Shown here piece after piece: positions 10,679-10,951 of a stretch of DNA of 15,676 nt. A model generated the notes under the pieces. The model saw only the letters and a program-made list of their open reading frames with translations, made no database searches and was not told the origin of the DNA. The stretch's first letter is position 1, and each line of letters starts with the position of its first letter. The translations under genes and the position numbers were made by a program. Source of the stretch: Escherichia coli (lineage in GTDB: Bacteria; Pseudomonadota; Gammaproteobacteria; Enterobacterales; Enterobacteriaceae); assembly GCF_003334305.1 (NCBI RefSeq), contig NZ_QOWS01000041.1; one strand, written 5' to 3'.

Positions 10679-10951
10679 TTATATCCTTTGACTACATGCA
10701 AGATAAGGGAAGGTTCTATTTATTGACATTAATACCCTCGACAATTGCTGAGCAGAAGCCCCCACGACAAGTGACAGAATGACAACATCTACAGTGGGGA
10801 GCGTTTTATCGATGAACAAGCAACCAAGAAGTAACACGGCATAGGTGACGACAATGCCAGTAAGCATAGAAATAACAAAAACGTGAGCTTTCATCATTCC
10901 TCCAGAATAACCCCGACGTGTAAGCCTGGGGGATTGGCACAATAATGTCAT
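10679..10951 (-). CDS. Hypothetical small membrane protein (about 72-90 aa), possibly translationally coupled to the enolase fragment
   Basis: ORF in the same orientation between the enolase fragment and crcB. Its first ATG overlaps the enolase-fragment stop (ATGA). An internal ATG ATG is preceded by GGAGGA but with near-zero spacing. It contains a hydrophobic segment ([24 protein letters not shown]). No recognisable family, so the call is tentative. Confidence 0.35.

Follow-up and report, generated by a model that had tools for sequence, protein, structure and literature searches.

A short open reading frame, called X below, lies between an enolase gene fragment and the fluoride channel gene crcB on a plasmid of Escherichia coli. 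The locus raises the question of whether X is a gene at all and, if so, what it encodes and whether the copy carried here still contributes anything. An earlier note had left the matter between a real accessory subunit or small membrane protein of the fluoride module and a spurious open reading frame in decayed DNA. Comparison with related loci makes it highly probable that X is a genuine coding gene of a fluoride cassette and, jointly, that the present copy is a transposon-borne relic of it.

The Locus and Its Neighbours

The window (the whole stretch of DNA analysed, 15,676 nucleotides) is a segment of a ColV/IncF-type virulence plasmid, collinear with pECOS88 and pSH696_117; the gene order of pECOS88 is that of the window. 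Its main features are the following.

iucA-D, minus strand
8654-9847, plus strand: ShiF-like MFS gene
10023..10063, no strand: left terminal inverted repeat of a decayed Tn3-family element, 41-nt arms
10227..10607, minus strand: crcB, intact, Fluc fluoride channel of 126 aa (RefSeq; NCBIfam PRK14196)
10679..10951, minus strand: X, full open frame of 90 aa (ORF list)
10948..11361 (open frame to 11382), minus strand: C-terminal third of eno, a pseudogene (TIGR01060, RefSeq, blastn)
11368..11616, plus strand: remnant of a Tn3-family transposase gene (tnpA), fused to the eno break-point (RefSeq annotation)
11634..11674, no strand: right terminal inverted repeat of the decayed Tn3-family element, pairing with the left arm
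from 11850 (sit operon 11850-15000), minus strand: sitDCBA

The coordinates of the tnpA remnant come from the annotation of identical plasmids, moved over by the coordinate offset. The crcB product scores 175.8 bits against PRK14196 (cut-off 125). The enolase fragment covers positions 287-422 of the 425 in TIGR01060, is flagged by RefSeq as 'missing N-terminus', and loses its homology to intact cassettes at 11358 (blastn against loci L013, L010 and L006). A repeat search found the two inverted-repeat arms, each of 41 nt, to be 90% complementary. RefSeq/PGAP annotates crcB and the eno pseudogene and leaves X uncalled; a single submitter annotates the same 216-nt coding sequence as 'Inner membrane protein' (OY856304.1).

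The Start and End of X

The ORF list confirms the 90-codon frame on the strand of crcB and the enolase fragment, as described earlier. The coding sequence proper is shorter, and the elements that define it are listed here.

10638..10674, minus strand: AT-rich hairpin in the X-crcB spacer, ACAATATCAG..17 nt..CTGATATTGT, 10-bp arms
10679..10894, minus strand: X coding sequence as carried here, 71 aa, MKAHVF...LMS plus a frameshifted 14-residue tail, stop TAA at 10681-10679
10723..10724, minus strand: 1-bp deletion in an A-run, ancestral TCAAATAAATAG to TCAATAAATAG (nucleotide alignment of 8 loci)
10895..10951, minus strand: 5' extension of the 90-aa frame (57 nt), the eno-X intercistronic spacer, not conserved as coding
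10899..10903, minus strand: Shine-Dalgarno GGAGG, 4 nt upstream of the conserved X ATG
10911..10932, minus strand: eroded copy of a GC-rich intercistronic RNA hairpin after the eno stop

The first ATG of the long frame (10951-10949) overlaps the enolase TGA stop (10950-10948), forming ATGA. This overlap, reported in the earlier note, is present, but it does not mark a real gene start, since the ATG is not conserved across lineages: it reads ATA in L003, L011 and L012, and in L010 a TAA closes its frame. A 90-aa form coupled to eno through ATGA was rejected on these grounds, and is further ruled out by the window eno being a pseudogene that lacks a start. Conservation instead places the start of X at the ATG of 10894-10892 (MKAHVF...), preceded in all loci by a conserved purine-rich GGAG or GGGG block. 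An alternative ATG one codon upstream, at 10897, gives a 72-aa form. Frames of 72 to 90 residues, the size first given to X, therefore exist, but the native protein has about 59 residues, and the last 14 codons of the present copy are the product of a frameshift.

The AT-rich hairpin downstream of X is conserved in every crcB-bearing cassette and is overlapped by a weak sigma-70-like promoter match (10677..10648). The hairpin or the promoter-like match could serve as an internal promoter or operator for crcB.

X in Mobile Fluoride Riboswitch Cassettes

A word-indexed search of 5.8 billion proteins returned, beside identical or truncated E. coli copies, 59-aa relatives of X at 73-93% identity. 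The genes around these relatives form a cassette that consists of a fluoride riboswitch (RF01734), ppaC (a family II pyrophosphatase of the DHH/DHHA2 type), a gene for a Usp-like protein of 142 aa, a 426-aa eno and X, with or without crcB. In a set with one genome per GTDB species, X follows eno in Rosenbergiella metrosideri, Hafnia psychrotolerans and Rahnella ecdela. The plasmid collection adds Enterobacter hormaechei pEB3_IMP1 and a Rahnella plasmid, and cluster look-ups add Citrobacter freundii, Serratia marcescens and Rahnella spp., where the product is always named 'hypothetical protein'.

The family is tiny, since an exhaustive HMM search of 1.84 billion cluster representatives gave only 17 matches. 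Four of these, relatives of 62-63 aa at 37-53% identity, share its hydropathy and motifs; relatives of this length lie directly after eno in the riboswitch-ppaC-usp-eno operons of L014 and L016. On a 1.4-kb contig (L017), the X relative follows a truncated upstream reading frame. A tblastn search with the divergent member P0044 retrieved approximately the same 790 plasmid records as the consensus query and added neither Pantoea nor other genera, and a scan of viral contigs yielded only the already known P2-like prophage. In that prophage (L022 3137-6180, identical to L029), the riboswitch-ppaC-usp-eno-X cassette is cargo (a moron), flanked by the replication gene gpA on one side and the portal gene on the other, which indicates that phages spread fluoride tolerance genes. 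Within E. coli, 832 of 5426 complete genomes (about 15%) contain the region at no less than 99% identity, almost always on plasmids, and X is present on about 790 PLSDB plasmids of Escherichia, Klebsiella, Salmonella and Shigella. X is a previously unnamed gene, the fourth of a mobile fluoride-riboswitch cassette in Enterobacterales. Chromosomes and plasmids carry this cassette, as do a Tn3-family transposon and a P2-like prophage.

The relationship of X to crcB is looser than its place in the window implies. X occurs without crcB in L003, L011, L012, L014, L016, the Serratia loci L018-L021 and the P2-like prophage (L022-L024/L029); X and crcB occur together in the window, L004, L006, L010 and L013; and crcB occurs without X in L027 and L028. 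This last group comprises the cassettes of K. variicola p4253-2 (eno, 96 nt, crcB) and of K. pneumoniae AR_0158, which carries an FRM-type operon (eno, 377 nt, gpmA, crcB, ATPase fragment); X was sought in both and is absent. Since such variants exist, a cassette can work without X. After eno or gpmA, each of the cassettes examined has at least one of X and crcB, in a sample that is small and phylogenetically clustered. Because so many cassettes have X without crcB, X is tied to the eno cassette rather than to crcB. The conservation that the earlier note proposed to look for beside crcB is thus real for X, but the linkage is to the eno/riboswitch cassette, from which crcB is often missing.

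The nearest described system is the fluoride-resistance operon of Enterobacter cloacae FRM, arranged as riboswitch-ppaC-uspA-eno-gpmA-crcB-orf5249 (Liu et al. 2017, PMC5533749). It has in common with the X cassettes the riboswitch-ppaC-usp-eno core and a mobile, horizontally transferred character. The FRM-type operon differs in having gpmA and a P-type ATPase fragment and in lacking X; the eno-gpmA gap of L028, an FRM-type plasmid copy, contains no X-related reading frame. The orf5249-like peptide of FRM is unrelated to X, and a relationship of X to this ATPase fragment was rejected because the hhalign comparison was not significant. The window eno fragment and crcB are 72-74% identical to L028 at the nucleotide level, and on this measure they derive from a sister version of the FRM operon. 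No description of X was found in the literature, including PMC5533749.

Expression of the FRM operon drops after eno (PMC5533749), and this drop is counted as a shared feature. A GC-rich hairpin of 8-13 bp follows the eno stop in L003, L010-L014, L016 and L018 (z -2.2 to -7.8; positions 5960-5989 in L010). Lineages keep its position and vary its sequence with compensating changes, and there is no U-tract; the window copy has a z of -0.79. The hairpin may set an expression step between ppaC-usp-eno and the downstream genes. By analogy, it could be the structure behind the expression step of the FRM operon, which lacks X.

Conservation of the X Frame

The X frame is open over 59-64 aa in L003, L004, L006, L010-L014, L016-L018 and L022; counting all diverged loci, 15 or more from no fewer than six genera keep it intact. 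Across eight diverged loci, it has no indels over 57 codons, while the flanking spacers do have them. Between the two main clades, dN/dS (Nei-Gojobori, NG86) is 0.075-0.25, with Fisher test p values of 1e-5 to 3e-12. The dS of X, at 0.9-1.5, equals the saturation of eno in the same pairs, so the constraint is on the protein and not on the RNA. Variable columns are distributed 24/13/36 over the three codon positions. For calibration, dN/dS is about 0.03 for eno and 0.04-0.12 for crcB. Inside the crcB-bearing clade, the X values are 0.17-0.76, with 0.36-0.76 in some pairs, and reflect few substitutions. The approximately 830 E. coli copies were left out of the calculation; all are at least 99% identical and therefore silent on selection of the plasmid allele. 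X thus has the marks of a protein-coding gene under purifying selection: a frame kept free of stops and indels, a dN/dS well below 1 between clades and a third-position bias. Frameshifts or stops in relatives, named beforehand as evidence against the frame, were not what the relatives contained, and the dN/dS comparison proposed with them points the same way.

These data bear directly on two readings in which X encodes nothing. That X is a spurious frame might be argued from its place inside a decayed transposon remnant beside a pseudogene, and from its lack of a protein-family match; the earlier note was right that the surrounding DNA is decayed. However, a frame kept intact under purifying selection in so many diverged loci makes this reading hardly conceivable. 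The conserved stretch might instead be an RNA element, an intercistronic regulator or a crcB leader, with the open frame incidental. Conserved hairpins do flank X on both sides, and PGAP annotates no coding sequence there in E. coli plasmids. Against this, amino acids are preserved although synonymous changes have reached saturation (dS 1.0-1.5), substitutions show a three-base periodicity, the relatives at 37-53% protein identity keep length and hydropathy, X is present where no crcB follows, and no Rfam match falls inside X. The dN/dS values effectively refute the RNA reading, which we regard as very improbable.

A Predicted Two-Helix Membrane Protein

The earlier note could assign X to no family, and this stands: Pfam and NCBIfam gave no match, the best PHROG hit has E = 0.06, and a sequence profile search of the PDB gave no match at E <= 10. 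A Foldseek comparison of the model with the PDB returned nothing meaningful (best E = 4.2). AlphaFold2, run on the family alignment, gives a helical hairpin with helices at residues 3-28 and 34-57 and a mean pLDDT of 81.6. X is thus predicted to be an inner-membrane helical hairpin of about 59 aa. The membrane segment reported previously is borne out, with two hydrophobic segments rather than one.

Residues F6, L42, G45 and Q49 are invariant, and K2, G13, T17, Y18, Q50 and R53 nearly so. Both termini carry basic residues, and distant members have a neutral or acidic loop. Under the positive-inside rule, such a pattern suggests an N-in/C-in topology, with both termini (K2, R53 and the terminal K/R residues) in the cytoplasm and a neutral or acidic loop in the periplasm.

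X shares with Fluc/CrcB (PF02537) the property of being a small inner-membrane protein, the two are co-located here, and they share the position after eno across cassettes. CrcB, however, is a dual-topology dimer whose subunits have about 126 aa and four helices, whereas X has 59 aa and two helices and no significant sequence or profile similarity to it. Homology of X to CrcB was rejected accordingly (no PF02537 or TIGR00494 match; hhalign probability 2%).

The Link to the Fluoride Riboswitch

An RF01734 riboswitch lies upstream of ppaC in L003, L004, L006, L010-L014, L016, L018 and L022, and the X relatives are on the same strand and in the same transcription unit downstream of it. One lineage has gone further. 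In L015 and L030, where gpmA follows eno, X is encoded on the other strand in convergent orientation to the operon, and a dedicated RF01734 lies approximately 200 nt upstream of X (43.0 bits in L015 and 42.9 bits in L030; gathering score 34), with a terminator-like hairpin between this private aptamer and X. The same unit of X and its own riboswitch occurs in L031 (33.1 bits, E = 5e-7) with a different left neighbour. As the three contigs are 98% identical, the private riboswitch represents one evolutionary event. The two riboswitches of one locus are alike beyond the RF01734 family consensus, which suggests that the private one arose as a duplicate of the cassette's own switch. In the 15.7-kb window, neither RF01734 nor any other Rfam element reaches the gathering score, and the plasmid copy of X is outside such a regulon.

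Decay of the Plasmid Copy

Homology to intact cassettes spans only 10034-11358 of the window, and the match to the intact element L013, which has a resolvase gene adjacent to its cassette, starts at 10034. The inverted repeats bracket a unit of 1.65 kb that contains crcB, X, the eno fragment and the Tn3-family tnpA remnant. From the span of homology, the inverted repeats and the tnpA remnant it follows that this unit is an internally deleted Tn3-family transposon, which once carried the whole cassette. Alignment with intact cassettes shows that the deletion took out everything from the riboswitch through ppaC and usp to two-thirds of the way into eno. Both ends are kept, so the element is in principle mobilisable in trans; by eye, no clear 5-bp target duplication was seen.

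The 1-bp deletion in the A-run replaces the terminal NK and stop of X (...LMSNK) with the 14-residue tail, and is specific to this plasmid lineage: about 770 plasmid copies all align only to residue 57 of the 59-aa consensus. In the window X, the ribosome-binding site, the start codon and both helices are preserved. Of 791 plasmid copies, 788 retain 80% of the frame or more, while sporadic plasmids have X truncated by IS elements or deletions (P0017, P0022, P0028, P0034 and P0037; partial in H17 and H45).

Expression on Virulence Plasmids

On plasmid pS88/pECOS88, pS88016 occupies the same locus as X, between the CrcB-like pS88015 and the enolase pS88017, and is annotated as 'conserved hypothetical' (PMC3438092). 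It is X, identified by position only. The coding sequence was dropped in the RefSeq re-annotation, leaving a locus-tag gap between RS00080 and RS00090. Transcripts were detected by qRT-PCR for all tested pS88 reading frames except ORF 23, and so for pS88016 (PMC3438092). In infected urine, the fold-changes were 776 for sitA, 139.75 for sitD, 18.68 for the enolase fragment, 9.74 for pS88016 and 6.08 for the crcB-like gene (PMC3438092). On Salmonella IncFIB plasmids, the 'enolase' is induced by iron chelator (PMC8602916).

The in vivo fold-changes fall in gene order from sitA to crcB. All of these genes share a strand, and between sitD and the remnant no terminator-like site was found in the window. 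For these reasons, we infer that the remnant is transcribed by read-through from the iron/manganese-regulated sitABCD and is not fluoride-responsive. The 'putative enolase virulence gene' of pS88 and Salmonella IncFIB plasmids is then a C-terminal pseudogene fragment. The decay of the fold-changes from sitA to crcB points to sit read-through rather than to a virulence function of the 'enolase'.

Whether the plasmid copy of X still does anything is about evenly balanced. It may be a dead relic of a real family, which contributes nothing to the plasmid host and is carried along only through its place between the transposon end and crcB; this is plausible, if short of an even chance. The altered C-terminus, the loss of the riboswitch, ppaC, usp and most of eno, the eroded hairpin after eno and the truncated copies on sporadic plasmids all agree with it. 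On the other side, both helices, the QQLSR motif and the translation signals are intact, a transcript was detected (PMC3438092), nearly all plasmid copies retain most of the frame, and the altered residues (NK) are the least conserved part of X.

Possible Functions of X

Fluoride-riboswitch regulons are known to include exporters, replacement enzymes and transporters for pH homeostasis. In E. coli, small accessory membrane proteins of one or two helices, such as AcrZ, KdpF, MgtS, MntS and CydX, are co-expressed with the stress system that they modulate. X falls in a similar size class; it has no sequence relationship to these proteins, and the proposed likeness is one of functional analogy. 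Our best guess is that X acts in the homeostasis of fluoride or other ions as an accessory factor in the membrane. For the accessory-subunit class, only the size, the hairpin topology and the small-xxx-small motifs of X fit. Of the accessory role offered in the earlier note, the reality of the gene and its presence in riboswitch cassettes hold, but X belongs with eno and not with crcB.

Our preferred mechanism, in which X is a fluoride-induced accessory hairpin, is more specific and is put forward with low confidence. Helix 2 contains small-xxx-small packing motifs (S41xxxG45xxxQ49) and a conserved G-x3-QQ-x2-R motif that may form an interface. With these, X would self-associate or bind a larger membrane protein, the likeliest partner being the resident Fluc/CrcB channel or a proton/cation transporter. 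The effect would be a lower accumulation of fluoride in the cytoplasm, in the manner of AcrZ, KdpF and MgtS. It is tempting to go further and regard X as a minimal new part of fluoride defence, either a self-assembling two-helix fluoride/proton pathway or an obligatory partner that tunes Fluc/CrcB. This would explain why all cassettes have X, crcB or both and why one lineage has given X a private riboswitch; we consider it unlikely.

Two other functions have to be weighed against the accessory role. X might be a minimal fluoride, anion or proton pore that replaces CrcB in cassettes without crcB. The occurrence of X, crcB or both in every cassette is in keeping with this, as are the conserved polar residues T17, Y18, Q49 and Q50 within or at the ends of the helices and a faint resemblance of X helix 2 to CrcB helix 1 (probability 2%, not significant). 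However, X has no detectable homology to CrcB or any channel, and the cassettes compared are few and phylogenetically clustered. Furthermore, to our knowledge a chromosomal crcB is present in all Enterobacterales, so that an extra exporter is not required. A replacement pore is thus improbable. X is also a short, very hydrophobic peptide borne by plasmids and a prophage, as would be expected of a type I toxin or holin-like protein, and its residues 22-25 ('LLGC') match the lipobox pattern, which would suit a lipoprotein or secreted peptide. However, X has no paired antisense RNA, being either co-oriented within an operon or under a riboswitch, and no PHROG match falls below E = 0.06. The position of Cys25 holds C, F or Y across the family, with F or Y in many relatives, and X as a lipoprotein was rejected for this reason; the hydrophobic segment is longer than a signal peptide. 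A toxin, lipoprotein or secreted peptide is accordingly a most doubtful identity for X, and the accessory membrane factor remains our preferred reading.

What is understood of bacterial responses to fluoride comes mainly from fluoride-riboswitch regulons, and X adds to them a conserved small membrane protein. It has no known relatives, is often skipped by curated annotation, and reaches about 15% of complete E. coli genomes through ColV-type plasmids. Should X prove to modulate Fluc or to take its place, fluoride physiology would gain a new component, with relevance to the engineering of fluoride tolerance for the degradation of organofluorine compounds. On virulence plasmids, the 'enolase' and 'hypothetical' reading frames repeatedly reported as induced by iron limitation or urine are what is left of a fluoride-resistance transposon; their transcription is probably read-through from sitABCD.

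Additional Riboswitches and Repeats near X Loci

In Rosenbergiella metrosideri (L010), a second fluoride riboswitch of 50.2 bits lies at 6795-6864 on the minus strand, just downstream of crcB and antisense into it. L014 also has a second fluoride riboswitch (9934-10009, minus strand), with the associated genes at 7926-9799. It precedes a DUF2623 gene and a gene of AraC type (HTH_18), and downstream are a phosphatase gene resembling gpmA and other minus-strand genes. This gene set may be an additional fluoride-regulated module. In L016, a small AraC-type gene is convergent with X.

The cassette of Serratia marcescens L018 is followed (6728-9427) by genes for a FabA-like dehydratase, a 262-aa protein without a Pfam match and an NhaA Na+/H+ antiporter. 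An association with fluoride riboswitches was already known for antiporters of this class; the locus yielded no second riboswitch.

In the window, a perfect 23-bp palindrome with an 8-nt loop (10108-10161) lies between the convergent crcB and ShiF-like MFS genes. It has no T-run, is found in L013 and L004 and is absent from L010. The palindrome could act as a bidirectional barrier to transcription or RNA decay.
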